From Eledone cirrhosa (Eukaryota): 64,000 bases of DNA. Shown piece by piece: positions 18,346-62,039 of the stretch. Location: positions 39,432,001 through 39,496,000 of the forward strand of contig OZ024744.1 of NCBI GenBank assembly GCA_964016885.1. Direction: 5' to 3'. Position 1 is the stretch's first letter; every line of letters starts with the position of its first letter. Below the pieces are notes generated by a model that saw only the letters and a list, made by a program, of their open reading frames with translations, made no database searches and had not been told where the DNA came from. Made by a program: the position numbers and the translations under genes.

Positions 18346-18367
18346 TAATAATAATAATAATAATAAT

Positions 18368-18680
18368 GATTTCTTTATTGGCCACAAGGGCTGACATCAA
18401 GAAAAATATCACAGACGGAACAGGACGGTACGATGTGGGTTTTGTGCGTGTAAATATTTTTATTATTTATATAAGAAAAGAAAAAAGACATAAAACATAT
18501 ATATATATATATATAAACAATAAAATGAAAATTGAAACAATGAAAAATTCCCCAATAGGGGGAAAACCTCCGAGGGTTACTCGTGGCGAAAACCACACTA
18601 AAGACCACGGCCACCCTGACTACCAGGGCAAGCGCCCTCTCTCAATTTTTCCATCTCTCAAACTACAGACGTATATTCAT
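18368..18680 (-). mobile_element. Tx1-like LINE 3' UTR stub between two (AAT)n tracts
   Basis: (AAT)n-GATTTCTTTATTGGCCACAAGGG and the conserved AAAATTCCCCAATAGGGG...ACCCTGACTACCAGGGCAAG block. Confidence 0.75.
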
Positions 18681-18688
18681 AAAAATAT

Positions 18689-18732
<44 letters not shown>

Positions 18733-18734
18733 GT

Positions 18735-21248
18735 TCATAACATACATGCCCCATGGATAGACAGACAAATGAAAGATACAGCTCACCTTGAGGAACAAAT
18801 ATGGGAAAATATAACAGTTGAACAGTTGCGCTTGGCTCTAAGAAAAACCAGCAAATGAAAATCCCCAGGAAAAGACAAAATACATAACTTTTGGATAAAT
18901 GCCTTCACAGAGTCTCATGAGCTGTTAGCCTAACTTTACAATGAAATAGTTAAGGAGCCAGAAAAGATACCATCATGGCTAGTTAACGGCATTACATTCC
19001 TGCTTCCGAAGAATGATGAGACAAACAATCCCAAAAATTACAGACCGATAACTTGCTTGACCACAATGTATAAAATTTTAACATCAGTCCTAACTGAATA
19101 CACATATGACCACCTGATAACAAATGACCTATTTCCTATTGAGCAGAAAGGGTGTAAACGAGGATCATATGACTGTAAGGATCAGCTTATGGTTAACAAA
19201 ATGATATTGGAAGATTGTCATAATAGACACAAAAATCTATCGATTGCTTGGATAGATTATAAAAAAGCATTCAATAGTTTGCCACACAGTTGGATTGAAA
19301 AATGTTTAGAGATTTTCAAAATATCCCCCGTTGTCAGGAGATTTTTGTCATTCAGTATGAAGACATGGAAAACGACACTCCTTTTGAATAGTGAAACAAA
19401 ATCACTGGAAGCTGGAGAAGTTAATATTAATTGTGGAATTTTTCAGGGTGACTCTTTATCACCGCTTTTATTCTGCATCGCACTTATACCATTAAGTAAA
19501 ATGCTCAATGAAACAAAACATGGATATAAAGTCTATGACAAAACCATTAATCACCTGTTCTACATGGATGACCTGAAACTATTTGCAAAAAATGATGAAC
19601 AATTGCAAGGGCTATTATCCACTGTGGAGCAGTTCAGTGATGACATTAAAATGGAGTTTGGACTAGATAAATGCGCCAAAGCAACGTTCACCAGAGGAAA
19701 GCTGCTGAAGAGTTCAGACATTAATCTTGATCGGGGGAACGTGATAAGAGAACTTGATCAAGAAAAAACTTACAAATATCTAGGTGTTTGTGAAGGAGAC
19801 GGAATCAAGCACTCGACAATGAGGGAAAGGATAAGGAAGGAATGTTACCGCAGAGTAAGAGCAATCTTAAGAACGGAATTGAATGCAAGGAATAGGATCG
19901 ATGCCATAAACACGCTTGCCATAACCAGTAGTAACTTACAATGTCATCAACTGGTCAAGCACAGAGATCCGTAGGCTCGATACAAAAATTCGAAAATTCT
20001 TAACCATGCACAGAATGCATCACCCTAAGGCAGATATAGATAGAATATATCTCCCTAGGAAAGAAGGAGGACGTGGGTTAATCCAGTTAGACATTGCGGT
20101 GAAAACTGCAACAATTGGATTATCTACATATCTAAGGGAATCACATGATTGGATGATCAAACTCGTTTTGAAACACGAAAGCATCAAAAGATCATATTCC
20201 ATTACAAAAGATGCACAAAGATACAGTAATGGACTACAAATTTCAGAAGTCCCATTTACTGCTGAAATGTAAAACACAGAAAAAGCAAAGCAGGTAAAAG
20301 TAACTGCAAAGAAAGAACTGCTACAGAAACTGGCTAAGAAATGGCAAGAAAAGCCTCTGTATGGAAAATACCCAGAGCGAGCTAACAATCCTGATGTTGA
20401 CAAAACTTTAACCCATCAGTGGTTGGCATCCTCTGGACTGAAATCGGAGACTGAAGGACTGATTATATCAGCACAAGATCAGTGTCTGCCAACAAAAAAT
20501 TACCAAGCCAACATAATAAAAATGGATGCAGCCCATTATGCCGTGTATGCAAAAAAGAACCAGAGACCATTGACCATATAATTTCAATGTGCAGTCCTAT
20601 AGCTCCAACCGAATACCTAAACAGGCATGACAGAGCTGCACAATACATACATTGGATAATGTGTAAGCATTTTGACCTGCCCCATCAAAAGAATTGGTGG
20701 GAGCATCAACCACCTCCCATACTTGAAAAAGATCACATCTCAATCTTGTGGAACTTTAGCATCCAAACAGACCGAAAAATAGATGCAAATAGACCTGATA
20801 TAATATTGAAGGACTTTAAAAAGAGAGTATGCCTGCTAATTGATATGTCTGTTCCAATAGACAAGAATGTATCTATAAAAACATTTGAAAAATTGAGCAA
20901 GTATAAGGACCTGGAGATAGAAATTGGAAAAATGTGGAAATTGAGAACTAAAACAATACCAGTGGTTGTAGGCGCTCTGGGAATGATACCTAAGGGGTCT
21001 AATGACTACTTATCGCAAATCCCAGGAAACCCGCGTATAGGAGAAATATAAAAGATAGTACTAATGGGAACTGCCCATATACTAAGGAAGATTCTGTCAA
21101 TATCAGTACATCACAAGTCTAAACACTAAAGATGCATGTGTGAGTATGTATGTTCTTTCTTGAACATGGCGGACCTTGTTGTCTCTTGAGGTCACTGGTT
21201 GTGACTTGGTGATAACTCGTATGAACATAAAGCAAGATAAATGCAACT

Positions 21249-21250
<2 letters not shown>
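18735..21250 (+). mobile_element. Dong/R4-clade non-LTR retrotransposon (RT plus restriction-like endonuclease), 5'-truncated, in (AAT)n
   Basis: RT motifs NYRPITCL, EQKGC, WIDYKKAF, GIFQGDSLSPLLF, HLFYMDDLKL; zinc knuckle CRVCKKEPETIDHIISMC; RHD; RLE NRPDIILKD...IDMSVP...EKLSKYKDL. Several stops/frameshifts; (AAT)n on both sides. Confidence 0.9.
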
Positions 21251-21297
<47 letters not shown>

Positions 21298-21524
21298 TTT
21301 CTTTATTAACCACAAGGTTTTACATAAAGTAGACATTAAGGACAGTGCAGGACAATACAGTACGGTACAAATGGGCATTTCTGCGTGTAAAAAACAAAGA
21401 GGATGTAACAAAAAATAACAATGAAAAATTCCCCAATAGGGACATTTGTGGAGGAAGCCCAGTAAAAGGCCACAGTGACCCTGACCACCAAGGCAAGTGC
21501 CCTCTCCCAGTTTTCCACCTTTAA

Positions 21525-24500
21525 TTTACAGCTATATACTCAGAGTAGGCCCATTCACTCGGGCCATTCTTGCTTCTCTCACCCATCTTTCAACAAAATG
21601 CTGGGAAGTCAATCAGAGCATCACCGAAGAGGTAAGTGCTCATCTTCAGCCCTTTCAAACGTGTCCACCATACTATCTCTTTCGCCATGGCCACCAGACA
21701 GATAAAAACTGCCTGCCCTTCCCGGCTAAAGGAGGAGGGCGGGGCAATCCTCACGATGGACTCAGATGATAGCCGGATCCGTCCTACACGCGACAGCAGG
21801 TGTTTGACATAAACCCACAAGTCAGCAATTTTCGGACACTGGACGAGTGCGTGCAGGACGGTTTCGTCGCCCTGCGCGCATCTCGGACATGCCCGGCTGA
21901 CGGCACCTCCATGCCTGTAGAGTTTATCCCGAACTGGCAAGGCTCCTCGGTAGCACTGCCAGGCCAGAGATTTCTGGAAGTTGTCCATAGGCCCTGGCCC
22001 GAAAGTTCTTCCGAAGAGATTGGCTAGTTGATTTTCGTCGACGCCTAGAGTTTCCCCAAGTACGTCGTCGCTCTTCCCCTCCACTAATGCTCTATAGAAC
22101 GCCGAGGTGGAGTTTCCACCGATCACATTGCCCGATTGGTCGAGGGCTGTGAGCGCCTGAAGACATTCCAGTCTCCAGGCGCTCCCTCTCGGTCTTCGCT
22201 TGACCCAGGACTGCAGCTCCGTCAAGGAAACGAGCTGGAGAAATACGTGTCTAGCAAACGGCGACCACACCTGATCACCGTCGAGGAAGAGGTGGAGATG
22301 TCGTAGCCTGAGCGCGTGCCTGCGCATCATCAGCCACGGCATTCCCAGCCCTCCACGTAGCGGGTGTTGACAACAGATGGACCGCCTGACCATCGGAGCG
22401 CGTCCCTTCCACAAAAAGCGAAAGAGCAAACGCTCCAGCGCAGTCAGGCGAGGCTTAGGACAAAGTACGACGGTCAGGCGGTAGCAGATGACAGACGCGA
22501 TGTACGCGTTAGTCACCTCCGCTCGACCTTTCAGGGATAGCTTCCTCTCTGCCCATTTCTGGGTGAGAGAAGCCACCCTGCTCGTCACCTCGTCCCAGTT
22601 TTTGTCCGTCTGGAGGTCCGGACCGAAACAGACCCCTAGCAATTTAACCGGTCCGTCCGTCCAGCGTCCGACGACGCTGTTGGACGGCATGGACCTGCCT
22701 CTCCAGGTGCCGAGCTGCAGGCCCACTGACTTTTCCTGGTTGATCATTGCTCCTGTCACCGCTTCGTATTCTCTTAGTGTAGTGCCGATCGCCTCGATGT
22801 GTTTGGCGTTCGACACCACTACGGTGACATCGTCCGCATATGCTGACACGGATCTTCCGCATCCTAGTTCGCGCGGGACGCCCCTCAACGTCTCCAGTTT
22901 GTGCAGTAATGGCTCGAGAGTCAATACGTACAAGAGGGGACATCCTTGGCGCACCGAGCGCATGATGTTGAACGGTTCCGACAGGTGACCGTTCACTCTC
23001 ACCACAGAGCAGATGTCGCTGTGCATGGCAGCGATCCAGCCTCTGAAGACGGGCCCAAAGCCAGCCGCCCTCAGGACTGCCGCTTGGTAACGATGGTCGA
23101 CCCTATCGAAAGCTTTCGACTGATCTAAATTGATCAAGGACCCACCCGTGCCAGGTTCCCTAGCTACCCTCTCTACGATGTATCGCATGAGGTGGAGGTT
23201 GTCGTGGATGGATCTGTCGGGAATGGCGCATGTCTGCGCCTCTCCCACCAGACCACCAACGACAAGCGCCAACCTCTTTTTTAGCACCTTGGCCAAAATC
23301 TTGAACTCTGTGTTTAGCAGAGTTATGGGCCGGAAATTATCTATGTTATCCCCCTTGTTCGGATCCTTTCTCAGCAGTGCCACCGCTCCTCGGCTCACAG
23401 AACTGGGAATTCTTCCGTTCTGTTGCCAGTTGCAGTAGACGTTCGCCAAGAGGCCTCCGAACAAGTCTGGCATCTGTACGTAAAGTTCATAGGGCAGACC
23501 ATCCAAACCAGGCGATTTACCCCTTGTGCAGCCAGTCATTCCCTCCCTTACTTCAGCGGCTGTTATCGGCTTTTCGCAACACTTCGCCTTAGTGGACGAG
23601 AGCCGCGGCAGTCCGTCGAGGTAGACACTAAAACCATCCCTCGACCCGGCCCACCGCTGCCCCCGAACAGCTGAGCGAAGAGTCGCTGAAAAGCTTCACA
23701 CATTTGCCGGGATCGAGTAGAATGCGCCCGTCGTGGTCCACCAAAGACCGGATCGTGGCTTTGTTGCCACGACGCGCCTCCGCCACTCGGGCCCATTGAA
23801 CGGCTTTCGTCCCCTCGTGTCTGAGAGCACGCACCCTTGCTCTGACAACGCAGCCTTCGTGCTTTGCATTGAAGAATTGGTCAAGGGCCAATTTCGCCAC
23901 AAGCACGTCGGTCGCAATGCCTTTGCTAAGCGCCTCGTCTAATTTTCTAACTAGTTCTCCCTCTGCTCTATTTTTCTCTATTGCTAAAGCCTTACTAAAC
24001 CTAATGGATTCTATTCTAATCGCTCTTTTCAGAGCAAACCACCACTTGTTGTTGACGATGGCCCCCGTCAACGCCCGCTTAACTAGTTGGCTAATCCGGT
24101 CTCTGTAGGCCTTGCGCGCTGGTAAGGACGCGTTTAGCTTCCAGTAGCCGGGTCCTCGTCTATGAAGCCTATCTAAGTCAAGCACACAGATCACGAATTT
24201 GTGGTCCGTGTAGCTGACTATCTTGAATTGTGGACAGCCTATGCTAGACCTATCTATTTCCCTACAAAATACTCTATCTAGATATGATCTGGATGACCAT
24301 ATGCGATTTGTCCAAGTCCACATTGGCACATTCGGGAAATCCAATCGGTACCTGTCAGACAGTTCAAAACACCTGAGCAGGTCGGTGAGGCTCTTGCACC
24401 CTCCACCCCTATCCGCTAATCCCACACAGTCCCAGCGTGCATCTAAGATCCCGTTCCAGTCGCCCACTAACACTAAAGAGCGGGACGTTCCAAGAAAGGT

Positions 24501-24881
24501 CTCCAGACGCCGGAAGAAATCAGGCCGCCCTGCTCCTGTCGGGGCATAGACGGCCACTAGCCTGAAAGCTTGCCCGTCTCCGCTGGTCACGTCCAGCACC
24601 ACCAACTTACCCTCTGGGTCCAGGAAGATGGCCCGTATGGCGAGATCCAAACCTCTCCGAAAAATCACAGCCACTCATCCCCCCGATCCAGGACGGCTGG
24701 GAGATGCGTACACATCGTAGCCGCCGAAGATCGGTGCGAAGGCCCGTGCTTCGGAGATTCTGGTCTCGCTGATGGCCACTACATCTATGTTTAGTGACCT
24801 GAGGTCGTTGAGCAGGTGACCCTGCTTCCATGACGACCCCAAGCCACGCGCATTTATGCTGCCTATTCTGAGTGAGGTCAT
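21525..24881 (-). pseudogene. ORF2 (APE-RT-CCHC) of copy A, frameshifted
   Basis: Broken into ORFs 24675-24881, 23628-24674 and 21590-23539, with small deletions relative to copy B. Confidence 0.88.
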
Positions 24882-25000
24882 GTTTAAAATAGAGTGGAAA
24901 AGATGGGAAAGACCACTTACCGTACTTTTGGTAGAGGAGGGATGGTTTTTCCATCCCTTTTCACTTGATCGTCTGGTAAAGGGACCGTTGAATCGTCCCT

Positions 25001-27013
25001 TCAGCTGGTCATCGGCTCTTCTATGAGTATGTCCGAATATACTCTTCGGTTGATAGTTCCTCCTAGGTCTCTGAAATCACCAACTGCGTTGGGGAATTTC
25101 GTTTTAATGTTTGTGTATTGTTTCTGTGCTATTTTTAGCAGTCTTATGTTAGTTGGCGTTTTGATTGGTGCTGGTATTATGTAGTCGTGTTGTGAAATGT
25201 CTGTGTGTTCAATTATGTAAGTCATTAGTTTCTTGTTGTGTGTATTTATTGCCGTGCATTTGTTTTTCTGGGGGTGGGGTGTGGTTCTGCTATTTTCTAG
25301 TCGTTGTTGCTGGGTGTGTGTGTTTTGTTGTTGTGTTTGCGATGTTGGTGCTTGTGGTGTTGAAGGTGATGTTGGCGGTGGGGTTGTCGCCGGTGGTGAT
25401 GGTGGTGCTAGTGTGGGTGGTGATGGTGTTGGTGGTGTTGCTGCTGTGAGTCTCTTTGCAGTAGACTTTACCCTTTTTTCATTTCTTTCCTCCCTTTTCA
25501 AAGGCGACGATGCGCTGCTTCTGCGTTTGTGCCTTCTTACGACCTTTTGCCATCCCTCTCCAACCTCACACTCCATGTCTGATTCTGTGAGGTCGGGGAG
25601 GGGTACCAGCTCCACTCTTTCACTTGTTGTTGGTGATGTTTGCACTGGAGTCTCTGTTGCAGCTGCATTTGGTATTGCTGTTGTTGTTGTTAATACTTCC
25701 ACTGCTGCTGCTGTTTTTGATTTCCGTGGCGTGTGTATGGGTGCCACGGACCTATCGTTCCTGGTTTCCGCTTGTCCTGTTGCTGCTAGCCGTGGAGCCG
25801 GTTTCGGAAGGAGGGGGGTTTTCTCCTTTCTCGGGGTCTTCTCGTTGCAGAAGGCCCTGAGGTGAATCTTCGAACCACAGCGAAAGCATTTCGGGCGTTT
25901 GCCCTCAACACTTATGGGCAGTTGAGTGCCGTTATCGAAATCTATCACATCCGGGATAGCTTCGATGCACTCCTGGTTGGTTTGGATTAACATCTCAATG
26001 GAGGTGCCAACCCAATCTTCTCTTACTTTTTTCTGTACTTGCAGTACAGTTGTTTTGTCCTCGATTCCGACGAGGGCAGACGCGGCCAGCTAAGAAGGGG
26101 CCATCCCGGGGGGGACGTGGGTCAGTTTGACCCTCACAATTTTTTGGCCGCAGTAGGAGGGCACCAACACCATTTCCTCGCTCCTTAGGGTCACTAAGGA
26201 TTGAGCCTTTGCCTCCTGGGGTGTGGCAAAAAGTACGTCTACGGTGGCATATTTCTTGCCTCGGGTGATGTGCGTTTTCCGCTGCCACACAGACCCCAAG
26301 GCTTTTTGTATTTGAGCCTCTGTGGCTCTTTCAACCCTACGGGATTTTGTACTTACTGTACGGTACGTGACCGTACAGTGCTGTTGGGTTTCGAAAAAAT
26401 TTTCGGCTGCCTTGCAGATTGCTCGGTGTCTAGTTTTTGTCACCATCTTCTTCGCTTCCTCTAATTCCTCATTTGTTATGAGGATGGTTTCCAGGTTCTT
26501 CGCGATACCTGCAAACGAGATTGGTTTTTCTTTGCTGCTGTTGTTGTTGTTGTTGTCGTCAGAGCTGCTGTTACTTTTGTTGTTGCTGCAGATACTACGA
26601 CTACTGCCGCCGCCGCTGTTGCTGTGGTTGTTGTTGTTGTTGCTGCTGCTAATGCTGTTGTTGTTTATGCTGCTGCTGATGCTGTTGCGGCTGCTACTGT
26701 TGTTTTCATTGTCACTGTTGCTGTTGTTATTACGGCTGCTACTGCTATTATTCCTGACGTCAGACGAATGAAATGGGTTTTCGTATTTCCCGCACACCTG
26801 TTTCGTCGTTGTCGTCGTCGTCGTGGAGAAATCTGGCACGCTTTGCACGAGACTTTTCTTTTCTGTCGTCGCTTGCGAAAGAGAAGGGAGAGAGAGAGAC
26901 ACATTTAAAGAAGGGAGGGAGAGAGACAATCTTCTCTCTGCTGTAGTGACGATTGAGGAAGAAGAAGACGGAATGAGTGGGAGTGACCTATGAAAATTCT
27001 AATTCGTAGCCAT
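25001..27013 (-). pseudogene. ORF1 (gag-like, Asn/Ser-rich N-terminus, CCHC zinc knuckle) of copy A
   Basis: ATG at 27013; one frame to 25001 with two in-frame TAG stops (codon 5, and 26090-26092). Copy E has AAG and TGG at these codons. Knuckle CFRCGSKIHLRAFC. Confidence 0.85.
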
Positions 27014-27228
27014 GTTGTTTTTTTGTTTAAAATAAATATTGGGCACAAAACCCCAATAAGCAGTTATTTAACCCCGAAGGGCCAAATAACGGGCAGAAAG
27101 ACCCCTCTCACGAGGAGGAGGGTGTTTTTGTCTACAAGTTGGTTAAAGTTTTAAACAATTTACAATTGTTATAGCGGTTAAAATTTACAATACCTTACAG
27201 AGCCGAGCCTCCGTCAACCATAGCATTC

Positions 27229-27285
<57 letters not shown>

Positions 27286-27431
27286 GCTTTTTGGAACGCT
27301 TCAAAAGGCATGCTTGCTGGGAACAGCAAGAACCCTCCGATACGTCCTGAATATCTGAGGCTGCAGGTAGTGGCTTGATATTCATTTCAACAAACTTTCC
27401 AGTTAACTAACATCAATGACTGAGACTCAAA
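27286..27431 (+). mobile_element. 3' stub of a second Dong/R4-like family between (AAT)n tracts (other copies 28270-28622, 34950-35095, 35934-36286)
   Basis: Translates GTLQKACLLGTARTLRYVLNI*, a typical R4/Dong C-terminus, then a short UTR and (AAT)n. Confidence 0.72.
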
Positions 27432-27466
<35 letters not shown>

Positions 27467-27468
<2 letters not shown>

Positions 27469-28115
27469 CATAATAAAAATGGATGCAGCCCATTATGCCG
27501 TGTATGCAAAAAACAACCAGAGACCATTGACCATATAATTTCAATGTGCAGTCCTATAGCTCCAACCGAATACCTAAACAGGCATGACAGAGCTGCACAA
27601 TACATACATTGGATAATGTGTAAGCATTTTGACCTGCCCCATCAAAAGAATTGGTGGGAGCATCAACCACCTCCCATACTTGAAAAAGATCACATCTCAA
27701 TCTTGTGGAACTTTAGCATCCAAACAGACCGAAAAATAGATGCAAATAGACCTGATATAATACTGAAGGACTTTAAAAAGAGGGTGTGCCTGCTAATTGA
27801 TATGTCCGTTCCAATAGACAAGAATGTATCTATAAAAACATTTGAAAAATTGATAAGTATAAGGACCTGGAGATAGAAATTGGAAAAATATGGAAATTGA
27901 GAACTAAAACAATACCAGTGGTTGTAGGCGCTCTAGGAATGATACCTAAGGGGTCTAATGATTACCTATCGCAAATCCTAGGAAACCCGCGTATAGGAGA
28001 AGTACATAAGATAGTACTAATGGGAACTGCCCGTATACTAAGGAAGATTCTGTCAATATGAGTACACAACAAGTCTAAACACCTAAAGATGCATGTGTGT
28101 GTATGTATGTTCTTT
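27467..28115 (+). mobile_element. Dong/R4-like 3' fragment (RLE domain), same family as 18735-21250; repeated at 35131-35779
   Basis: Near-identical to 20510-21160; starts directly after (AAT)n and is fused to a Tx1 ORF2 scrap at 28116-28211. Confidence 0.85.
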
Positions 28116-28393
28116 CTGTCCGGAATGGTGCATGTCTGCGCCTCTCCCACCAAACCCTTGACGACAAGCGCCAACCTCGTTGCTAACACCTTGGCCAAAA
28201 TCTTGAACTCATTTCATTTATTGGCCACAAGGGCCGACATATAGGGAACAATACTGGGATAATAATAATGATTTTGGAACACTTCAAAAGGCATGCTTGC
28301 TGGGAACAGCAAGATCCCTCCGATACGTCCTGAATATCTGAGGCTGCAGGTAGTGGCTTGATATTCATTTCAACAAACTTTCCAGTTAAATAA

Positions 28394-28582
28394 CTGTTTC
28401 TACTTTTGGCACAAGGCCAGCAATTACTCAGTGCATTACTGGTACTTTATTTTATCGACACCGTAAGGATGAAAGGCAAAGTTAACCTCGGCGGGATTTG
28501 AACTCAGAATGGCAAGGGCCGTAACTCTATACGTCAAAGCATGGCGTCCGACCCTCTACCGATACTGCCAATCCACCGCCCT
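28394..28582 (-). mobile_element. Full-length tRNA-derived SINE with 18-bp TSD (duplicate at 36058-36246)
   Basis: A box TGGCAGTATCGG and B box GAGTTCAAATCCC on the minus strand; TSD AACTTTCCAGTTAAATAA at 28376-28393 and 28583-28600. Confidence 0.88.
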
Positions 28583-28636
28583 AACTTTCCAGTTAAATAA
28601 TATCAATTACTGAGACTCAAAGAATAATAATAATAA

Positions 28637-28826
28637 TTGTTTCTACTTTTGGCACAAGGCCAGCAATTATCCCAGTGTATTACTGGTACTTTATTTTATC
28701 GACTCCGTAAGGATGAAAGGTAAAGTTAACCTCGGCGGGATTTGAACTCAGATCATAAAGGGCCGTAACTCGTTGCCTCAAAGCATGGCGTCCGACCCTC
28801 TACCGATACTGCCAATTCACCACCCT
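28637..28826 (-). mobile_element. Full-length tRNA-derived SINE inside (AAT)n (duplicate at 36301-36490)
   Basis: Same family as 28394-28582, with AAT repeats on both sides. Confidence 0.85.
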
Positions 28827-28827
28827 A

Positions 28828-28868
<41 letters not shown>

Positions 28869-34895: not shown

Positions 34896-34949
<54 letters not shown>

Positions 34950-35095: not shown

Positions 35096-35132
<37 letters not shown>

Positions 35133-36491: not shown

Positions 36492-36555
<64 letters not shown>

Positions 36556-40745: not shown

Positions 40746-40747
40746 AT

Positions 40748-50764: not shown

Positions 50765-51976
50765 ATGGTGTGGTACGATGAATTTTGGCAGTTATATCTT
50801 GAAGGTCACGGGATTGCGCACAGCAGACAAATACATAGCCCACAAGACTTATGCTGTGCCAATCTTAACACCAACATTTGGCTTGCTGGACTGGTCATTG
50901 TAAGAACTAAGAGAGATGAATATAAGAACTAACAAGCTTCTCAGTGTTACTTGGAACTTTAACATCAATGGTGATGTGGATAGACTATACTTCTGCTGTG
51001 GCTGGGGTCTAAAATCCATCTTAACATCATATGTGACCCAGATAGTAACACTGAAGCAACATCTTCAACAGAAGAAAAAGGTCAGCAACTATCTTGCCTA
51101 GGTTTATGAGAGTGAAGGAAATAATACCATTAGGATAACCACTGATCTGGAGGAGAGATATGGAATAAGGCCTGATATAAATATCTCTCCCAGGGAAATT
51201 GGAAGATCCTATTCAATGCTCGAACAAGATAAAAAGCCTGGCATAGAGTTACGACAAGTTTATGACATCCCACTTTGAAGGATATCTCTATGCAATACAG
51301 GAACAAGAACTCCCTACTAAATATCTGCTACACAAAAGAGGAGGGCCATCAGTCGATAATAAATGTAGGCTATGTAAAACAGAGATCGAAGATGTTAGCC
51401 ACATTGTTGCCAACTGCGAAAGAATGTCGTCTCGTTACTACCTCCCTATGAGACACAATGCGATAGCTAGAACCATCTGGAACATACTTAGGAAAACAAA
51501 ATTAAAAACAAGGAGGAATATGTTGAGATAGATGGCACTAAAGAATACTGGTGGAACCTGAAAATAAAAACTACCATCAAATTAAAGCACAACCGGCCTG
51601 ATATTGTTGTTTGGGACCACACATTGAAAACGTGTTCTGTTGTAGAGATCAGCTGCCCACTTGATGTCAACGTTGTAAGAAAACTACCAGAGAAGGAGGA
51701 CATCTACGGACCATTGATGAGGAGTTTGCAGATCCATCATTATTAGAGCTACAGATTATATACCAGCCTGCTTGGACCAAAGTATGACTGAACTTGGATT
51801 TGTGGACAAAGAGCACAGCTCCCTAATTCATAGACTACAAATGGCTGCGATAGCTGGCACCTTCAAAATTTGCAAAACATTCTTCCGATTCAAGGGATGA
51901 CAATTTTCTTTCTATTACAACCTTGCCACCAGGAAGGTGGCCAGTCAAAAAGGTACTAGAAATTAAGAGAAAGAGA
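50765..51976 (+). mobile_element. RLE-type (R4/Dong-like) retrotransposon, 3' part, ending at (ACAT)n
   Basis: AIQEQELPT, CRLCK...EDVSHIVANC, RHN, NRPDIVVWD...VEISCPLD; ends GAAATTAAGAGAAAGAGA then ACAT repeats. The left boundary is approximate. Confidence 0.8.
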
Positions 51977-52061
51977 AGCGTGTATACATACACACATACA
52001 TACATACATACATACATACATACATACATACATACATACATACATACATACATACATACAT

Positions 52062-52210
52062 GGTGGCTGCCAACTCGTTTTCGAGTACGGCCACTACTTT
52101 ATATCCATGTAGGAGAACCCCTACCGATGCGCTGAACAAGTGTGACTTTTTAGTCCAGCCAGCGACTTGAAAACTCTGGTACAAACACTACACCTGTGAC
52201 AATTCTTGAC
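52062..52210 (-). mobile_element. RTE-like 3' stub with C2H2 finger inside (ACAT)n
   Basis: CSVCTRVFKSLAGLKSH, terminal stem-loop ACTCG-AAAA-CGAGT and an (ATGT)n tail. A related stub lies at 55371-55420. Confidence 0.65.
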
Positions 52211-52362
52211 ACACATACATACATACATACATACATACATACATACATACATACATACATACATACATACATGCATACATACATGCATACATACATACAT
52301 ACATACATACATACATACATACATACATACATACATACATACATACATACATACATACATAC

Positions 52363-52660
52363 ATGATGAGGAGCTTACAAATCCAGTATCCAAGATACAC
52401 CTTTAGCTTCATACCCATCATTATTGGTGCTACGGGTTATATACCAACCCGCTTGGACCAAAGTATGACCGAACTTGGATTTGCGGACAAAAAGCGCAGC
52501 TCCCTAATTCATAGTCTACAAATGGCTGCGATAGCTGGCACCTTCAAAATATGCAAAACATTCTTGCGATTCAAGGGATGACAATTTCTTTTCTTTTACA
52601 ACCTTGCCACCAGGAAGGTGGCCGGTCAAAAAAAATATACTCGAAATTAAGAGAAAGAGA
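52363..52660 (+). mobile_element. 3' stub of the (ACAT)n-associated RLE family
   Basis: MMRSLQIQYP...KICKTFLRFKG* plus UTR; (ACAT)n on both sides. Confidence 0.82.
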
Positions 52661-52778
52661 AAACATACATGCATACATGCATACATACATACATACATAC
52701 ATACATACATACATACATACATACATACATACATACATGCATACATACATACATACATACGTACATACATACATGCAT

Positions 52779-55244
52779 GAGGATTGTGGCGTCTTCACAG
52801 AAGATTACCGTCTTTTATTGATTCTTAATTGTCATCCCATCTGCGTCCATGACTTCGTAGATGACTTTGTAGATCAGTTGTAGATCTACATGACACAGGT
52901 GACAAAAGAGAGTTGTGCTTTCCACAGGACCGGTGGGGTCACCCTGTGGGACACAATCTTTATGCACCACCATGTGTTTTTTTTTTTAGTCCGAAACTAG
53001 TTCTACACACTTTATTGCATATCATGCACGTTGTTTCACCAGGTCTTTGTTGAGTGGTGTTGCGGGTGGTTGTCCTTTCATGTGACATCAGGTGATTAAC
53101 ATAACCAGCCTTTGAGAGGAGTACACACTGACAGAATTTGCATGTCCAACTACTGATGACTTCATCAAGACTGAGCACAACACTTCCGGAGCGGGGCTTC
53201 AGTTGATTATGTTCTAGACAACATTCCTCAAAAGTTTTGTAACTGCCCTTTATGCGCGTTCTCCACTCAGTCCTATTCAGAACTATCTCCTGCCAGTTGT
53301 CTCTATCAAATGCAAGTTCTTTGAGGATGTTCTTGATGCTGCCCCTGAACCTCATTTTCGGTTTGTGTTGAGGCCTTTTTCCAAGAACTCGCCGTAAAAC
53401 AGTTGCTTCGGGATCCTGAAGTCGATATGTGCTGTTCAGCGCATTTGAGATGTTACTTGATCCCAATGTTTGGACATTCTGCTTTGATAAGGGCATGGAT
53501 GTAAGGAGTTCTGTCTTGCCACTTGATGTTGAATATGCGCCTTAGACATTTCTGCTGAAAGCGCTCAAGCAATTTGATGTGTTTGTGGAATGGTGTCCAG
53601 GTTTCGGCAGAGTATAAAAGAGCAGACAGAACACATGATCTATACACTCACACCTTGGCATTGTTGGTAATGTTGCGATTTGCCCAAACTCCCTTTTCCA
53701 ATTTTCCGAAGGTAACAGGGGTCTTCTGGATTCGCAGATGTATTCCAGCATCCAAGGCGCCATCATTTGAGAATGTGCTACCCAAGTAGACAAAGTTATC
53801 TACTACTCCCAACCTGGTTCCATCAACCATGATATTGGGTTCAGTATATGATTCTCTAGGAGCAGGGGTAAACATTACTTTGGTCTTTTTAAGGCTGATT
53901 GTAAGCCCAAATGCTGTAGATGAGGATAAGAAACGGCCCATAAAGTGCTGCATGTCAGCTTCTGTGTGTGCTAGGAAGTCAGCGTCGTCTGCATAAAGAA
54001 GGACTCTGATCAAAGCTTGAAAGGTTTTTGTCTTGGCATTAAACCTTCTTAAGTTGAAAACCTTTCCAGTAATTCTGAACCATAAAAGAATGACTGTCAC
54101 AATCATGGAAAGCATGTGTGAACAAGGCAGCAAAAAAAGATGGAGAAAAGCGTAGGAGCAGGAATATCACCTTGCTTTACCCTGTTGTCAATTGGGATTT
54201 CCCCAGATAGTTGACCATTGAAGGTAACTTGAATTTTCATTTTACTGTGCTGCTTCTTTAGCATACACAAACTTGGGTGGACATCCCACTTCTCCAAGTA
54301 TCTCTGTTAACTGTGTCAAAAGTGATACCACGGTAGTTGCAACATCGATTTTTCACCTTTGCCTTTGTATAATGATAACAGAATACCGTTGATCCAGTCT
54401 TGCGGAACCAGAGTCCTATTCCAGCAATCAGTAATGAAGTTGCTTATTGCTTCTGTTACATTATCACCACCGACTTTCAGCAGTTTGACTGGGATACCAT
54501 CTGGACCTGGTGCCTTGCCAGAGTTAACCTGCTTGATTACCAGCTTTATTTCATCAGTAGAAAGAAGTCGATCCATACAGTGCACTGTTTCACTTTGAGG
54601 AAGGCCCTCTATCACTCCAAAATTGACTATTCATGGCTTCTCAAACAGCTCAGTAAAGGTGTTCTTCCCAACCCTGAAAGATTGTTTATGGTTCTTTGAT
54701 GATGATATTGACATCGTCTTCAGATCTCAGAGGAGTTAGTGAGGATGTTGGTTGGCCGAAGACTTGCCGTATCAATGAATAAAATGACTTCGAATCTTTG
54801 GTGTTAAAAGTCTGTTACTTCGCCACTCATTTTTCATCCTGCGCAGTTCGCTTGTAGTGCTACGAGATTCTGATTCAGGAGCTTTTCATAGAGAGTGTAC
54901 TTGGTTTTCAATAGCTGATCGATATTAGGATTGTTGTCATCAAACTAGTCCTGGTGTTTCTTGGTTCTGAAGCCAAGTATCTCAGCTACTATTGAGTAAA
55001 CTTGATCTCTAAACTTTTCCCAGGTGCCACTAAAATCAAGACCATCAAGTTTTTCAGTTAGGGTTGCACATACATCTGCTTACCTCAGTTTGGTGACATC
55101 AATGCGTTTCAGTGCTTTCATTCCACTCACTTCATGCACTGTACACACATCACTCAGATCTCGTTTATGAATGATGATGAAATCAATCATGTGTCCATGC
55201 TTGGACCTTGGATGATACCAGGTAGCTTTATATTTGAGCTTCTG
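52779..55244 (-). mobile_element. RTE-BovB-like LINE, 5'-truncated, with C-terminal C2H2 fingers
   Basis: WYHPRSKHGHMIDFII, GKAPGPDGIP, VKQGDIPAPTLFSIF, LLYADD, LLYSAETWT, CKFC...NHLMSH; (ACAT)n on both sides. Confidence 0.85.
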
Positions 55245-55265
55245 ATACATACATACATACATACA

Positions 55266-55297
<32 letters not shown>

Positions 55298-55421
55298 AAC
55301 ATACATACATACATACATACATACATACATACATACATACATACATACATACATACATACATACATACATGATAGCTTCCCCCTCGTTATCGAGTATGGC
55401 CATTGCACGAGAATAAAAAAC

Positions 55422-55468
<47 letters not shown>

Positions 55469-55469
<1 letters not shown>

Positions 55470-58207
55470 TTTTCTTTATTAACCACAAGGGTTTACATAA
55501 AGTAGACATTAAGGACAGTACAGGACAATACAGGACGGTACAAATGGGCATTTCTGCGTGTAAAAAAAACAGAGGATGTAATAAAATAACAAAGAAAAAT
55601 TCCCCAATAGGGGGGAGACTTCGGAGGGAGATTTGTGGAAGAAGCCCATTAAAAGACCAGTGACCCTGACCACCAGGGCAAGTGCCCTCTCCCAGTTTTC
55701 CACCTTTAATTTACAGACACATACTCAGAGTAGGCCCATTCACTCGGACCATTCTGGGAAGAGAGCACTTCCCTCTCTACCCTGATTTTCCTTTTCAAAT
55801 GAAATTTGTAAAAGTTAATCAGGGCATCACCGAAGAGGTAAGTGCTCGTCTTCAGCCCTTTCAAACGTGTCCACCATACTATCTCTTTCGCCATGGCCAC
55901 CAGACAGATAAAAACTGCCTGCCCTTCCCGGCTAAAGGAAGAGGGCGGGGCAATCCTCACGATGGACTCAGCTAGCTGGATCCGTCCTACACGTGACAGC
56001 AGGTGTTCGACATAAACCCAGAATTCAGCAATTTTCGGACACTGGACGAGTGCGTGCAGGACGGTTTCGTCGCCCTGCGCGCATCTCGGACATGCCCGGC
56101 TGACGGCACCTCCATGCCTGTAGAGTTTATCCCGAACTGGCAAGGCTCCTCGGTAGCACTGCCAGGCCAGAGATTTCTGGAAGTTGTCCATAGGTCCCGG
56201 CCCGAAAGTTCTTCCGAAGAGATTGGCTAGTTGATTTTCGTCGACGCCTAGAGTTTCCCCAAGTACGTCGTCGCTCTTCCCCTCCACTAATGCTCTATAG
56301 AACGCCGATGTGGAGTTTCCACTGATCACATTGCCCGATTGGTCGAGGGCTGTGAGCGCCTGAAGACATTCCAGTCTCCAGGCGCTCCCTCTCGGTCTTC
56401 GCTTGACCCAGGACTGCAGCTCTGTCAAGGAAACGAGCTGGGGAAATACGTGTCTAGAAAACGGCGACCACACCTGATCACCGTCGAGGAAGAGGTGGAG
56501 ATGTCGTAGCCTGAGCGCGTGCCTGCGCATCATCAGCCACGGCATGCCCAGCCCTCCACGTAGCGGGTGTTGACAGCAGATGGACCGCCTGACCATCGGA
56601 GCGCGTCCCTTCCACAAAAAGCGAAAGAGCAAACGCTCCAGCGCAGTCAGGCGGGGCTTAGGACAAGATACGACGGTCAGGCGGTAGCAGATGACAGACG
56701 CGATGTACGCGTTAGTCACCTCCGCTCGACCTTTCAGGGATAGCTTCCTCTCCGCCCATTTCTGGGTGAGAGAAGCCACCCTGCTCGTCACCTCGTCCCA
56801 GTTTTTATCCGTCTGGAGGTCCGGACAGAACCAGACCCCTAGCAATTTAACTGGTCCGTCCTGTTGGACGGCATGAACCTGCCTCTCCAGGTGCCGAGCT
56901 GCAGGCCCATTGACTTTTCCTGGTTGATCATTGCTCCTGTCACCGCTTCGTATTCTCTTAGTGTAGTGCCGATCGCCTCAATGTGTTTGGCGTTCGACAC
57001 CACTACGGTGACATCGTCCGCATATGCTGACACGGTTTTTTTGTCCTCGATTCCGACGAGGACAGCCAAGAAGGGGCCATCCCGGGGGGGACGTGGGTCA
57101 GTTTGACCCTCACAATTTTTTGCCCGCAGTAGGAGGGCACCAACACCATTTCCTCGCTCCTTAGGGTCACTAAGGATTGAGCCTTTGCCTCCTGGGGTGT
57201 GGCAAAAAGCACGTCTACGGTGGCATATTTCTTGCCTCGGGTGATATGCGTTTTCCGCTGCCACACAGACCCTAAGGCTTTTTGTATTTGAGCCTCTGTG
57301 GCTCTTTCAGCCCTACGGGATTTTATGCTTACTGTACGGTACGTGACCGTACAGTGCTGTTGGGTTTCGAAAAATTTTCGGCTGCCTTGCAGATTGCTCG
57401 GTGTCCGGTTTTCGTCACCATCTTCTTCGCTTCCTGTAATTCCTCATTTGTTATGAGGATGGTTTCCAGGTTCTTTGCGATACCTGCAAATGAGATTGGT
57501 TTTTCTTTGCTGCTGCTGTTGTTGTTGTTGTCGTCAGAACTGCTGTTACTTTTGTTGTTGCTGCAGGTACTACGACTACTGCCGCCGCCGCTGTTGCTGT
57601 GGTTGTTGTTGTTGTTGCTGCTGCTGCTGCTGTTGTTGTTGCTGTTGCTGCTAATGCTGTTGTTGTTTATGCTGCTGCTGCTGCTGCTGTTGCGGCTGCT
57701 ACTGTTGTTTTCCTTGTCACTGTGGCTGCTGCTGCTGTTATTATGGCTGCTACTGCTATTATTCATGACGTCAGACGAATGAAATGGGTTTTCGTATTTC
57801 CCGCACACCTGTTTCGTCGTTGTCGTCGTCGTGGAGAAATGTTGCCCGCTTTGCACGTGATTTTTCTTTACTGGCGTGGCTTGCGAAAGAGAAGGGGGAA
57901 GAGAGACACTCTTCTCTCTGCTGTAGTGACGATTGAGGAAGAAGAAGACGGAATGAGTAGGAGTGACCTATGAAAATTCTTTTTAGTAGCCATGTTTTTT
58001 TTTGTTTAAAATAAATATTGGGCACAAAACCTCAATAAGCGGTTATTTAATCCCGAGGGGCCAAATAACGGGCAGAAATACCCCTCTCACGAGGAGGGGG
58101 GTATTTTTGTCTACAATTTGGTTAAAGTTTTAAACAATTTACAATTGTTATAGCGGTCAAAATTTACAATACCTTACAGAGCCGAGCCTCCGTCAACCAT
58201 AGCATTC
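55469..58207 (-). mobile_element. Tx1-like LINE copy E with both termini and a ~3.2-kb internal deletion
   Basis: Same 5' end (GAATGCTATGG) and 3' end as copies A/B; junction near 57035 joins mid-ORF1 to VSAYADD; (AAT)n on both sides. Confidence 0.9.
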
Positions 58208-58261
<54 letters not shown>

Positions 58262-58322
58262 TAATAATAATAATAATAACAACAACAATAATAATAACGA
58301 CAACAATAACAATAATAATAGT

Positions 58323-58369
<47 letters not shown>

Positions 58370-58397
58370 TAAACATATCTACACACACACACACACG

Positions 58398-59146
58398 ATA
58401 GCAATTAACAGCGCTGCGATCGAATGTGGCTTTTTAGCCCAGCCAATGATCTTGCACAGAGTTGGGCAACCAAAACATTCACTGGGAGTAGCTGGCTGTG
58501 GTTGGTGTTTATGTACTTTTGCATGTCGTTTGAGCCCTCCTGCTGATTTACATTCTCTACCATATGCTTGACAAGCATGATGAGTAGCATCTCCAACAGC
58601 AGCCTGGTAGTCAACCACTGGTCTTACTTTATGACTGCGAAGATGACTTTCAAGTCCAGCTTCGCGGATTCAGAATTTCGCACAGACGCTGCATGTCAGC
58701 GCCATAGGAGGACCTTCGCCGTCTGGAAATGCAATAGTAATGCCCTTCCTTGCATCTCGCTTTACTTTCTGGAATGCGATTCGAGATGCCTCAAAGGCAA
58801 CTTTCCCCTCAAATACAGTCTTTCTCCATTGATTACGATCAGCAGCAACATTTTCCCATGTATCAGCAGAGATGTTAGCGTCTTTCAAAGGGGCTTTCAA
58901 GGAATCCTTATACATCTTTTTTGGTTTATGTGGAGGTCGTTTTCCTTTAACTAACTCTCCATAAAAGAGTTGTTTTAGTATTCTAGAATCCTTCATCCTG
59001 GCAAGGTGACCACTCCAACAGAGTCTTTGCTTAAGCACAAGAGCTTCTATACTGTCACACAGAGAGCTTTCCAAAATCTCGACATCACTGATGTGGTCCC
59101 TCCAGTGAACGCCATGGATCCGTCTGAGACACATCTGATGGATGGA
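58398..59146 (-). mobile_element. RTE-BovB-like 3' fragment with several C2H2 fingers
   Basis: HQMCLRRI...QRLCWSGHLARM...QLFYGEL; ECKSAGGLKRHAKVH; RSLAGLKSHIRS. Confidence 0.8.
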
Positions 59147-59190
59147 TACATACATACATACATACATACATACATACATACATACATACA

Positions 59191-59219
<29 letters not shown>

Positions 59220-59221
<2 letters not shown>

Positions 59222-60040
59222 GTAAAACACAGACCATAGAGGGGATAAACCACTCAAAAAGCCTGGCATGGAGTTCCGACAAGTTTATGACATCACACCT
59301 TGAGGGATATCTCTATGCAATACAGGAACAAGAACTCCCTACCAAATATCTGCTACATAAAAGAGGAGGGCCAGCAGCTGACAATAAATGTAGGCTATGT
59401 AAAACAAAGATCGAGGATGTAAGCCACATTGTTGCCAGCTGCGAAAGAATGTCATCTCGCTACTACCTCCCCGTGAGACACGATGGGATAGCTAGAACCA
59501 TCTGGAACGCACTTCGGAAAACAAAATTAACAACAAACGAGGAAGAATATATTGAGACAGATGGCACTAAGGAATACTGGTGGAACCTGAAAATAAAAAC
59601 TGCCACCAAATTAAAGCACAACCGGCCTGATATTGTTGTTTGGGACCACACATTGAAAACGTGCTCTGTTGTGGAGATCAGCTGCCCACTTGATGTCAAC
59701 GTTGTCAGAAAAATACAGGAGAAGTAGGACATTTACGGACCATTGATGAGGAGTTTACAAATCCAGTATCCAAGATACACCTTTAGCTTCATACCCATCA
59801 TTATTGGAGCTACGGGTTATATACCAACCCGCTTGGACCAAAGTATGACTGAACTTGGATTTGCGGACAAAAAGCGCAGCTCCCTCATTCATAGTCTACA
59901 AATGGCTGCGATAGCTGGCACCTTCAAAATTTGCAAAACATTCTTGCGATTCAAGGGATGACAATTTCTTTTCTTTTACAACCTTGCCACCAGGAAGGTG
60001 GCCGGTCAAAAAAAATATACTCGAAATTAAGAGAAAGAGA
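59220..60040 (+). mobile_element. Third copy of the (ACAT)n-associated RLE family
   Basis: ORFs 59287-59727 and 59743-59961; preceded by (ACAT)n and followed by TAATATACATACAT. Confidence 0.85.
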
Positions 60041-62039
60041 TAATATACATACATATCGTACATGACCTGTTTATCGTCTACGAAGGTGAAAATGAACGGC
60101 ATCTGGCAACTAGACCTAAGACGAAAGATCGCCTCGTGATTATATATAACAACGTTTTACGAAAAATTTGCAACATAATCTTTTGGTTGGTTTATTTGAA
60201 CACTTTCCTTTCATTCTTTCCCCACTATTTTCCCCTTTCGTGCTTTGTCTCAAACAATGTTTTTTTTTTTGTTTTTTTTTTCAGATTTGCTTAGTGTATT
60301 CTGGTGCTCTATTTCTCGTAGACGGCAGGGGTTGGGAGAACCCCCCCCCCTCCCCACATACACAACACACACTATGAGTGGGCAGGACTGTGAAGATTAG
60401 AAAATGGACGAACGAATTACTATATTTAATATAATGAAGATTTTGCTTTGTCATAGTTCTGTTATAAAATCATTCTATTACCTCTGATGTCCTCGGTCCC
60501 CGGGCTGTTTTCATCTGCCAAATTGGGAAGAGGCCATCATGCCTGAGGAAAGACCCCCGTGAGGTAGAATGGCTGATGCAGCCGGTATCGCTGGCTGTTC
60601 TCGGCGGCTATACTTTAAATATCTTGTCCGCGTAACATAACTGAGATATACCGTCCAGCTATAGGCGTAGAGTGATGTTCCTCCTCATTTACACCCACCG
60701 CCTTTTCTATTTCTCTTTTTTTTTTTTTTTGTTAATTATGATATTGTAAACATCTTTAAAATGTTACACTCTTATATCTAATAAATATTATTTAAACCCA
60801 TATATCTTCTGGGTAAGAAATAAGGAGTGTAGCTAATATTTGTTAGTTTGTGTATGCTGCTCTGTATTTACTACTTAGAAATAGGGGTGTATGTGAAGAT
60901 ATATACGATAGGTTTATGTACAATAAACATACAAGAGTCTTACTATAAATATTTTAAGCTTTAATCATGTCACAGCTATCTCAGAAGTCCTGTAAGAACG
61001 CCATACACGTGTTTCATCGAAGATGCCTTCTCATTCGGCACTGAGACAATATAAAACATCAGCTGTGGATGCTGTTTTGCATATATGGCATGTGAGCCTG
61101 ACAGCTAGGATTAATCAGTAGTAGCATTAACATAGCGGGATTTCATAATAGAAGTGAATATGAAGACATAAGATACAAGCCTTCCGGCGCTAGGGAGCTT
61201 TTGCAACGTGGAAACTTTTTGAATGATCTTTTTTCCTACACTGATATTTTCTATTGGCTCTAAATATGTTAGTATGATCCTGTTTTTAATTTCTTTCTTA
61301 GTCTCGTATTGGTGATAAAAAAAAGCATCCGCTAATAATAATAATACATATGTACAGTATATATATTTAAGTCAATCCCAAAAGTGTAACGGGAGCTTTG
61401 CAATATGTCTATATGTAATAAGAATACATAAATTTCGTTCTGAATGTTTTAAGCTATGAATCACGTATAAGCATGCCTTCATATATGTATCTAGTATGAA
61501 TCACGCTATGTTAGTATTACTACATAGTATATTTGTTAAATTATTCTTTTAGTGGTGATGCCCGATGTTATGATGTGCAATAAGGCCTGGTGCTAAAATG
61601 GTTGTCCATGTCTGGTCTGACATAGAGGTTCCCCACCCTCCCGTCCTTAACTACGTCTGATGAGAGTAGCCAATGTTGGTTTAATTGGTCGTTAATTAAA
61701 CACTTTAGTGATATACTTACAGTACAAAACATACTTGACATTTCCTATTCAACGAACGAAACTTTTCTTTCTAGCATCTAGCCGTCTCTCACCCACCTCG
61801 TTAACGCTGCGTTAGTTGCCAAGTAATAATACTTAATTACAACGGCTGTTTGTTGTTGTTTTAAACCCACAATAGCAATTAAACATTCCACACAAAAAAA
61901 ATAAATTTAAAAAAAAATGTCAATGAAAAAATTAGTAAATTTATTTGTTTAATTCTTTACATTCTTGCTGTTATTTGAACCTTTAATTTTAAATTCATCT
62001 CCCTGACAGACCCCCCCCCCCCCCCCCGGGCTGATAATC

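Follow-up and report, generated by a model that had tools for sequence, protein, structure and literature searches.

Two rows of retrotransposons that lack long terminal repeats (non-LTR elements), each joined by its own microsatellite, occupy much of a 64-kb stretch of the Eledone cirrhosa genome (hereafter the window; 64,000 nucleotides, contig OZ024744.1, positions 39,432,001 to 39,496,000; coordinates below count from its first letter). In the first row, at 16441-47878, Tx1-like long interspersed nuclear elements (LINEs) and short interspersed nuclear elements (SINEs) on the minus strand lie together with plus-strand elements carrying a restriction-like endonuclease (RLE), and the pieces are joined by AAT repeats; in the second, at 50814-60040, plus-strand copies of the family RLE-C and minus-strand copies of RTE-type elements are joined by ACAT repeats (Table 1). 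Here we examine whether these and related families, among them elements with an apurinic/apyrimidinic-type endonuclease (APE), occupy particular repeats in a particular direction elsewhere in the genome.

Composition of the window

When the ends of 25 element pieces were counted by eye, excluding a duplicated cassette, 33 of the 50 ends lay at the expected repeat, 5 at a short form of it and 12 at no repeat, and none lay at the repeat of the opposite strand. The original prediction, which held that almost every recognizable terminus abuts a specific repeat, was thus too generous, as two in three ends do so, although the strand rule was without exception (0/50). The AAT chain that it described is real and extends to the left of position 18346, where it had been taken to begin, through the Tx1-like copy at 16441-18345. 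The two rows are not strictly separate: because the third Tx1-A copy splits RTE-B in the 3′ untranslated region (UTR), a member of the AAT guild (the set of elements that share this repeat) lies inside the ACAT zone.

Table 1 Elements recognized in the window, with their strands and adjoining repeats.
Element	Position	Strand	Remarks
PHD-bearing RTE-type LINE (PHD-RTE)	379-3833	+	(GAT)n tail of its own; flanked by AT-rich arrays (2-378, 3834-4696)
Tx1-like copy lacking its 3′ end	16441-18345	−	5′ end (by eye) adjoins (AAT)7 at 18346-18366
Tx1-like 3′ fragment	18367-18679	−	flanked by two AAT tracts
RLE-A, 5′-truncated; reverse transcriptase (RT), CCHC, RLE	18733-21249	+	bordered by AAT tracts at either end
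Tx1-A copy 1, full length	21296-27228	−	(ATT)n on both sides
Cassette of mixed pieces	27285-28827	both	RLE-B, RLE-A, Tx1 and SINE parts
RLE-B 3′ end (in cassette)	27285-27432	+	
RLE-A fragment (in cassette)	27467-28117	+	
Tx1 piece (in cassette)	28115-28210	−	
RLE-B 3′ piece (in cassette)	28272-28394	+	
Two SINEs (in cassette)	28395-28583 and 28638-28827	−	
Tx1-A copy 2, full length	28867-34895	−	open reading frame (ORF) 2 open at 29132-32743 (APE, RT, zf-RVT)
Second copy of cassette 27285-28827	34950-36491	both	no substitutions; local duplication or assembly artefact
Mini Tx1-like piece	36555-36611	−	between AAT tracts
Tx1-B, 5′-truncated	36640-40749	−	followed head to tail by Tx1 3′ fragment 40750-41682
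Older Tx1-like copy, 3′ part lost	42078-45043	−	5′ end beside degenerate AAT tract
Older Tx1-like copy	45518-47878	−	3′ end at (AAT)5; 5′ end at no repeat
RLE-C, older truncated copy	50814-51980	+	(ACAT)n beside the 3′ end, no ACAT beside the 5′ end
NA608 (608-bp non-autonomous RTE-type element), 3′ part	52062-52208	−	(ATGT)n on both sides
RLE-C, 5′-truncated	52365-52662	+	(ACAT)n on both sides
RTE-A, 5′-truncated C2H2-bearing RTE-type LINE	52779-55244	−	(ATGT)n on both sides
RTE-B, 5′-truncated C2H2-bearing RTE-type LINE	55371-59145	−	(ATGT)n on both sides; split in ATT tract of 3′ UTR
Tx1-A copy 3, internally deleted	55469-58207	−	nested in ATT tract of RTE-B 3′ UTR
RLE-C, 5′-truncated	59221-60040	+	(ACAT)18 at 5′ end; short ACAT at 3′ end

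The block 28867-36554 repeats 21296-28866 as a 7.67-kb tandem duplication and therefore does not represent independent insertions, so that it was counted once. No substitutions separate the two blocks over 25000-28866, and 7-11 per 500 bp occur before position 25000; the 3′ half of the Tx1 copy differs by about 1.7%, as might result from unequal crossover, conversion or an assembly artefact. If not such an artefact, the duplication is recent.

Sampling and scoring of junctions

The genome, of 3.0 Gb, was searched with the ends of eight element types, longer stretches were taken, and the copies were chained to a real reference copy. For each family, the junctions scored are those of the 30-40 hits most like the window copy, with no random draw; copies in the window were excluded, and a 5′ junction was scored as repeat-associated when a perfect run of at least 12 bp ended no more than 15 nt from it. 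Two pattern searches, with the 5′ ends of RLE-C and NA608, yielded samples without ranking by likeness, which were counted by eye. Not included in the 5′ counts were local duplicates (L052, L056), partial hits (L314, L315), copies with an unresolved 5′ end (L055 and, in RTE-A, L093, L095, L105, L116), copies with a different upstream sequence (L135, L137, L140, L144 in PHD-RTE; L320, L325 in Tx1), the PHD-RTE copy that served as reference (L351), RTE-B copies interrupted at the 5′ UTR tract (L357, L359, L363, L365, L366, L368, L370, L371) and L360, an RTE-B copy that is longer than the reference and is preceded by three ATGT units.

The genome background was taken from 20 stretches at round coordinates on three chromosomes (198 kb); at 12 bp, it was 0.14-0.18% in the classes based on AAT and ACAT and 3.4% in AT. 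The local background, from the DNA flanking the scored loci, was 0.6-3.5% (9% for AT). Against these rates, enrichment at 5′ junctions, the absence of which had been named beforehand as refuting the original prediction, was found, and the association between family and repeat, which extends beyond the window, is far above chance.

Strict targeting by the RLE families

On the sense strand, RLE-A has AAT and RLE-C has ACAT at both ends. RLE-A 5′ junctions lie at AAT in 26 of 32 cases (7/7 full-length and 19/25 truncated) and never at ATT, ACAT, ATGT or AT; all 33 of the 3′ junctions lie at AAT. For RLE-C, the 5′ junctions lie at ACAT in 25 of 29 cases (1/2 full-length and 24/27 truncated) and never at ATGT or AAT. 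The pattern search for full-length RLE-C 5′ ends gave 133 matches; among the 100 listed, about 84 (by eye) come after two ACAT units and none after two ATGT units. The contrast between the families is complete (26 AAT and 0 ACAT for RLE-A, 25 ACAT and 0 AAT for RLE-C; Fisher p ~ 1 × 10−11 and 3 × 10−13), the overlap with the repeat at truncated ends is mostly 0-2 bases, and copies that are 97-100% alike follow the same pattern of family, repeat and strand. Thus, the predicted placement of a Dong-like family in AAT and of a second RLE family in ACAT, both on the plus strand, holds, and the RLE elements have a strict microsatellite specificity.

RLE-A and RLE-C share about 31% identity, and the tree places them in different subclades. 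The layout is that of the R4/Dong clade, namely, a single ORF with RT, a CCHC knuckle and a C-terminal restriction-like endonuclease but no APE; a Pfam scan gave RVT_1 and zf-RVT hits and no Exo_endo_phos, and the RPD...D..K motif seen in both translations is presumably that of the restriction-like endonuclease. As in that clade, no C2H2 finger pattern was found in the N-terminal frame of either family. The two share a W-containing N-terminal segment (profile scores of 87 and 23 bits) that had no Pfam Myb hit. Among the 120 homologues listed there was no named R4, Dong or Rex6 member, the tree having no named reference; the nearest named relative of one element, in the list and in the tree, is an Argonauta protein, and the closest solved relatives of RLE-C are R2 proteins. 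With respect to (TAA)n at both junctions, as in Dong, RLE-A has it and RLE-C does not (0/29 AAT), so that RLE-C is an element with a Dong-like mode of operation and a different target. The labels "Dong-like", "RTE" and "tRNA-type SINE" are provisional throughout, being based on domain layout and characteristic motifs rather than on trees with named members. At least two further RLE families on the AAT strand, RLE-B and another one, occur in chains (L173, L176, L366, L184).

Tx1-A and its probable partner SINE

Read on the sense strand, the Tx1-like elements and the SINE use ATT, the C2H2-bearing RTEs (RTE-A and RTE-B) and NA608 use ATGT or AT, and PHD-RTE uses AT. All 42 full-length Tx1-A 5′ ends are preceded by (ATT)n. 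Truncated Tx1 and SINE copies often lie at a short ATTAT motif without a microsatellite: candidate target duplications were found for 19 of 28 SINEs, of which 11 (11/28) are 9-19 bp long and begin with ATTAT at the 3′ end, and two truncated Tx1-A copies in ordinary DNA show duplications starting with ATTAT as well. Thus, the APE elements have a short-motif preference that is looser than RLE targeting. The runs beside full-length Tx1-A have medians of 31 and 39 bp (n = 33), compared with a median of 17 bp for empty tracts in the RTE-B 3′ UTR (n = 19), and therefore insertion or later slippage adds repeat. Two full-length Tx1-A copies (L163, L335) have (ATT)n before them and only one ATT followed by (CTT)n behind them, and the CTT is not repeated in front of the 5′ end; these are insertions at the border of a compound repeat.

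Tx1-A has the layout of the Tx1 clade, with ORF1 and an ORF2 that contains APE, RT and zf-RVT/C-terminal CCHC (Pfam). The closest solved relative is L1 ORF2. In the RT tree, Tx1-A falls apart from a plant L1-type sequence and beside a protein with the automatic name "Transposon TX1 149 kDa protein", although the support for this grouping (91/94) is below the starred level. The SINE is likely a partner of Tx1-A, judging from a common short stem-loop motif and ATT tail at the 3′ ends and from the same ATTAT-starting duplications; it contains what we take to be a B-box-like motif, seen by eye, and had no Rfam hit at gathering level. SINE identity was rejected for two other pieces, 27285-27432, which is the 3′ end of RLE-B on the plus strand, and 52062-52208, which is the 3′ part of NA608. 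The mini element at 36555-36611 seems to consist of a Tx1-like 5′ end motif joined to a Tx1 3′ end.

RTE-type families

PHD-RTE 5′ junctions outside the window lie at AT in 16 of 27 cases, in line with the predicted association with (TA)n, although the examples that it was drawn from lie outside the span 18346-60050 for which it was made (379-3833 and a second one near 14375-16414). Because the PHD-RTE tail is (GAT)n (31/32 copies), the AT found where copies are 5′-truncated does not stem from the tail. In one copy (L347), the element lies in an (AT)n run centred in an inverted repeat of 24 bp, which hints at cutting of hairpin-forming DNA.

At the 5′ junctions of the other families, ATGT was found in 8 of 12 cases for NA608, 6 of 20 for RTE-B (9/20 at 9 bp) and 3 of 25 for RTE-A (10/25 at 9 bp). 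For the group at 9 bp, ATGT outnumbers ACAT by 29 to 2 (p = 5 × 10−7). Among 100 NA608 5′ ends listed of 9,254 matches, about 66 follow two ATGT units, 29 follow AT or mixed repeats, 2 the ACAT strand and 3 none (by eye), and the genome contains 1,495 exact matches to a 34-base RTE-B end with ATGT. NA608 and RTE-B have a 3′ stem-loop in common and are 73% identical over 153 bp of the 5′ UTR.

The layout of RTE-A, RTE-B and PHD-RTE is that of RTE elements (a single ORF with APE followed by RT, no CCHC knuckle and a microsatellite 3′ end), to which we presumptively assign them from this layout and N-terminal motifs. The domain scan found APE, RT and PHD in the element at 379-3833, where the PHD finger lies inside ORF2 after the RT core (2039-3442), and, in RTE-B, APE and RT together with a weak match to C2H2 at the C terminus (E = 0.075).

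Taking the RLE and APE families together, strand bias is fixed and is opposite between the two kinds of element in both AAT and ACAT repeats, as had been predicted.

Tracts present before insertion

Because truncated 5′ ends of many lengths meet the repeat and because empty paralogous sites exist, the repeats are best regarded as pre-existing insertion sites. The empty sites are found in RTE-B, the 3′ UTR of which contains GT, AT and ATT/GTT tracts. Outside the window, 19 of 29 such 3′ UTRs are uninterrupted and 10 contain other sequence; of the latter, 5 have in the ATT part an AAT-guild element that faces the expected way, 1 has RTE-type GAT-tailed pieces in the AT part and 4 have other inserts (all by eye). 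The RTE-B 5′ UTR has five ATT units in empty copies. Ten fetched copies reach this tract; in 8, an AAT-guild element adjoins it, the upstream half of the 5′ UTR being visible in 2 of these, and in 2 it is intact, with a third intact copy in the background sample. In one filled copy (L365), a truncated RLE-A separates the two halves of the 5′ UTR and is bordered by 5 ATT units at one end and 8 at the opposite end, compared with 5 in empty copies. Thus, the ATT tract existed before the insertion, and insertion into AAT leaves repeat on both sides. The expectation that empty sites hold the microsatellite is borne out by these paralogues for AAT only.

No duplication of non-repeat target was found in full-length Tx1-A (0/33), RLE-C (0/29), RTE-A (0/29) or NA608 (0/12), and a comparison of element 5′ ends with Rfam gave no ribozyme and no tRNA head. 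Among contigs of four sequencing runs placed on 59500-61300, only those of one run, possibly the source of the window itself, span the unique flank without a break, and no empty allele was seen; in the run of a second organism, there are RLE-C-like ends with ACAT after them.

Chains and repeat load

On the far side of the adjoining repeat, a guild member in the expected direction follows in 42 of the 66 flanks examined for Tx1-A and in 37 of the 63 for RLE-A, with one in the opposite direction in each case; the corresponding numbers are 12 of 58 for RLE-C (2 opposite) and 2 of 53 for PHD-RTE. Of random segments, 50 of 400 match the library families in either direction. The flank counts are lower bounds, the library being incomplete. 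Thus, chains are strong for AAT, weak for ACAT and absent for TA, and of the self-extending chains originally proposed for all repeats, those in AAT, with two usable tracts after each insertion, stand.

In the background sample, of which the library families make up about 19%, 15 of 23 AAT tracts touch these families, compared with 0 of 23 ACAT and 2 of 91 AT tracts (with a wider margin, ACAT 0/15 and AT 3/85). The neighbours of AAT tracts lie in the expected direction for Tx1 (5/5) and RLE elements (5/5), with 2 SINEs against it. AT tracts are the most abundant (4,496 bp, compared with 575 bp of AAT and 553 bp of ACAT in the 198 kb), and because they and ACAT tracts seldom touch these families, the general claim that such chains explain the repeat load of the genome is not supported. 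Chains account for much of the AAT and for some local density of transposable elements (TEs), not for the overall microsatellite load.

Other features of the window

A Mariner-like DNA transposon remnant at 49468-50280, with inverted ends of about 93 bp, adjoins TA tracts; its translation is presumably that of a transposase. Inverted repeat arms of about 260 bp (90%) at 13132-13383 and 14046-14309 resemble a non-autonomous DNA transposon. A pair of inverted copies of 369 bp (98.9%), part of a Tx1-like ORF1, lies at 44124-44492 and 48497-48865, 4 kb apart.

Discussion

Several unrelated non-LTR families sit in particular repeats in a fixed direction, and each probably nicks one strand of its repeat and primes there, a reading to which we assign a probability of roughly 0.7. 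In the standard model of target-primed reverse transcription, the nick falls on the strand complementary to the sense strand of the element, and orientation, the only evidence used here, would then place the nick on the ATT strand for RLE-A, ATGT for RLE-C, AAT for Tx1 and ACAT for the C2H2-RTEs. RLE enzymes would thus nick the T-rich strand, and APE enzymes would nick the A-rich one immediately behind an AT step, a position at which the primer could pair with the RNA tail. Target choice by RLE elements is likely set by protein, through the common N-terminal helical segment and the nuclease (an N-terminal domain has been proposed as the target reader in R4/Dong; PMC7998251), and the short-motif preference of APE elements, ATTAT for Tx1 and the SINE, would be satisfied many times over by microsatellites. 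Because insertion leaves repeat on both sides, AAT users would re-enter the same place and produce polarised chains, and the ATT tracts in both UTRs of RTE-B would seed AAT-guild insertions inside ATGT and AT sites.

A broader scheme, which we put forward tentatively, is a two-by-two rule whereby, in two AT-led microsatellites, the RLE lineage independently took the T-rich strand and the APE lineage the A-rich strand, RTE UTR tracts plant AAT sites, and a network of succession builds polarised piles. Niche partitioning as the origin of the opposite orientations is not claimed: only two repeats are involved, and chance could produce the pattern.

Several observations weigh against nicking at a specific repeat as the general rule. 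Truncated Tx1-A copies lie at (ATT)4 in 3 of 15 cases, compared with 42/42 for full-length ones, and SINE 5′ ends in 4 of 28, so that the predicted placement of minus-strand Tx1-like elements and SINEs in AAT is strict for full-length Tx1-A and looser for the others. No 12-bp repeat is present at 17 of 25 truncated 5′ ends in RTE-A and 11 of 19 in RTE-B; the latter 11 are an upper bound on insertions into RTE-B bodies, which the method would call as 5′ ends; no insertions longer than 50 bp were seen inside 60 kb of chained RTE-B bodies. RTE-B 3′ ends lie at ATGT in 11 of 24 cases, at AT in 7 and at neither in 6, and therefore the ATGT and TA guilds overlap. Accordingly, the proposed placement of C2H2-RTEs in ACAT on the minus strand survives as a strand bias towards ATGT, but with low counts (3/25 in RTE-A, 6/20 in RTE-B) and AT sites as well, and a clean partition of families by repeat is not supported, given that C2H2-RTEs and NA608 use both ATGT and AT and that the SINE and truncated Tx1 often lack a microsatellite. 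The low flank counts of RLE-C and PHD-RTE given above also weigh against the general rule.

Among the alternatives, an unlikely but substantial one is that the nucleases are unspecific and that sorting comes only from pairing of the RNA tail and, in full-length copies, of a repeat-containing RNA leader at both junctions. In each APE family, the terminal repeat agrees with the target at the first bases, a correlation between tail and target has been described for RTEs (PMC6007223), and Tx1-A follows (ATT)n always when full length and seldom when truncated, as leader annealing predicts. The gap between full-length and truncated Tx1-A may indeed reflect an annealing RNA leader, a model given for some R2 elements (PMC3774820), or it may be an effect of age, as the truncated sample is older (about 93-94% like the query), which confounds the contrast. 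Against tail pairing, truncated RLE-A (19/25) and RLE-C (24/27) copies, in which no leader is left, still lie at their own repeat, and PHD-RTE has a GAT tail and an AT site. Passive build-up, through wide insertion or insertion at fragile repeats, survival in repeat-rich, gene-poor DNA and later deletions back to microsatellites, is improbable: the associations of RTE-A and RTE-B are only partial and AT tracts are common (3.4% in the background, 9% near PHD-RTE), but repeat and strand are family-specific by the Fisher tests, and copies 97-100% alike conform. Finally, that the elements made the repeats as tails or by slippage, none being there before, is very improbable and, for AAT, already largely refuted, since the repeat is found at 5′ truncation points of many lengths and empty paralogous sites keep the tract, even though the runs beside Tx1-A exceed the empty RTE-B tracts and RTEs generate microsatellites in moths (PMC2887409).

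RLE-A and RLE-C, and likewise Tx1 and RTE, form matched natural pairs for finding the determinants of target choice by RLE and APE enzymes, which bear on programmable gene insertion. Octopod genomes have TE hotspots and many recent Dong-R4 and L1-Tx1 copies (PMC13282606, in the main text of which the word "target" does not occur), and the behaviour described here offers a concrete cause for part of them. It is also a warning that AAT microsatellite markers in this genome often lie between repeats.

Comparison with known systems

Elements known to target microsatellites are Dong (TAA), Kibi, Koshi, crocodilian Tx1, Waldo (ACAY), Mino and Togen (PMC4494074, PMC4640811, PMC3812793, PMC7998251, PMC10294476). 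The habit itself and the opposite use of one repeat are known, and these particular pairings of target and strand were not found in the literature searched: no report was found there of Tx1 in (ATT)n, R4-like elements in (ACAT)n, RTEs in (ATGT)n or APE/RLE pairs sharing a dispersed repeat, although notes in Repbase may record such targets.

RLE-A resembles Dong, DongAg, DongBg and the ostracod Dong of the R4 clade in the single ORF with RT and restriction-like endonuclease, the lack of an N-terminal zinc finger and the (TAA)n target (PMC7998251, PMC3812793); the R4/Dong clade has a divergent N-terminal Myb/SANT-like domain (PMC7998251). RLE-C differs from the Dong group in using (ACAT)n, a target not found for the clade in the literature searched. 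Waldo (ACAY) and Mino (AC) have an ACAT-type microsatellite target (PMC3812793), but these are insect APE elements of another lineage, whereas here an RLE family and RTE-type families are involved.

Tx1-A is similar to Kibi (TC)n, Koshi (TTC)n and crocodilian Tx1 (TTCC)n/(TTTC)n, all Tx1-type APE LINEs preferring microsatellites (PMC4494074). It differs from all of these in the (ATT)n target, which is looser in truncated copies and is used as well by an RLE element, on the opposite strand, and by the probable partner SINE.

RTE-clade LINEs and their short partners have 3′ microsatellite tails, the first base of which matches the target duplication (PMC6007223), and the octopus RTE-2_OV has a microsatellite-rich 3′ UTR (PMC9115989), as do the families described here. 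Unlike in those descriptions, repeats flank truncated copies on both sides, with an ATGT strand bias, and the UTR tracts are landing sites for other clades.

A parallel to the opposed orientations is provided by TRAS1 and SART1 of Bombyx mori, which share a single tandem repeat as target but face opposite ways in it, as determined by the endonuclease (PMC7265360). Both of those are APE elements in telomeric repeats, whereas the present case opposes APE to RLE elements in two dispersed microsatellites.

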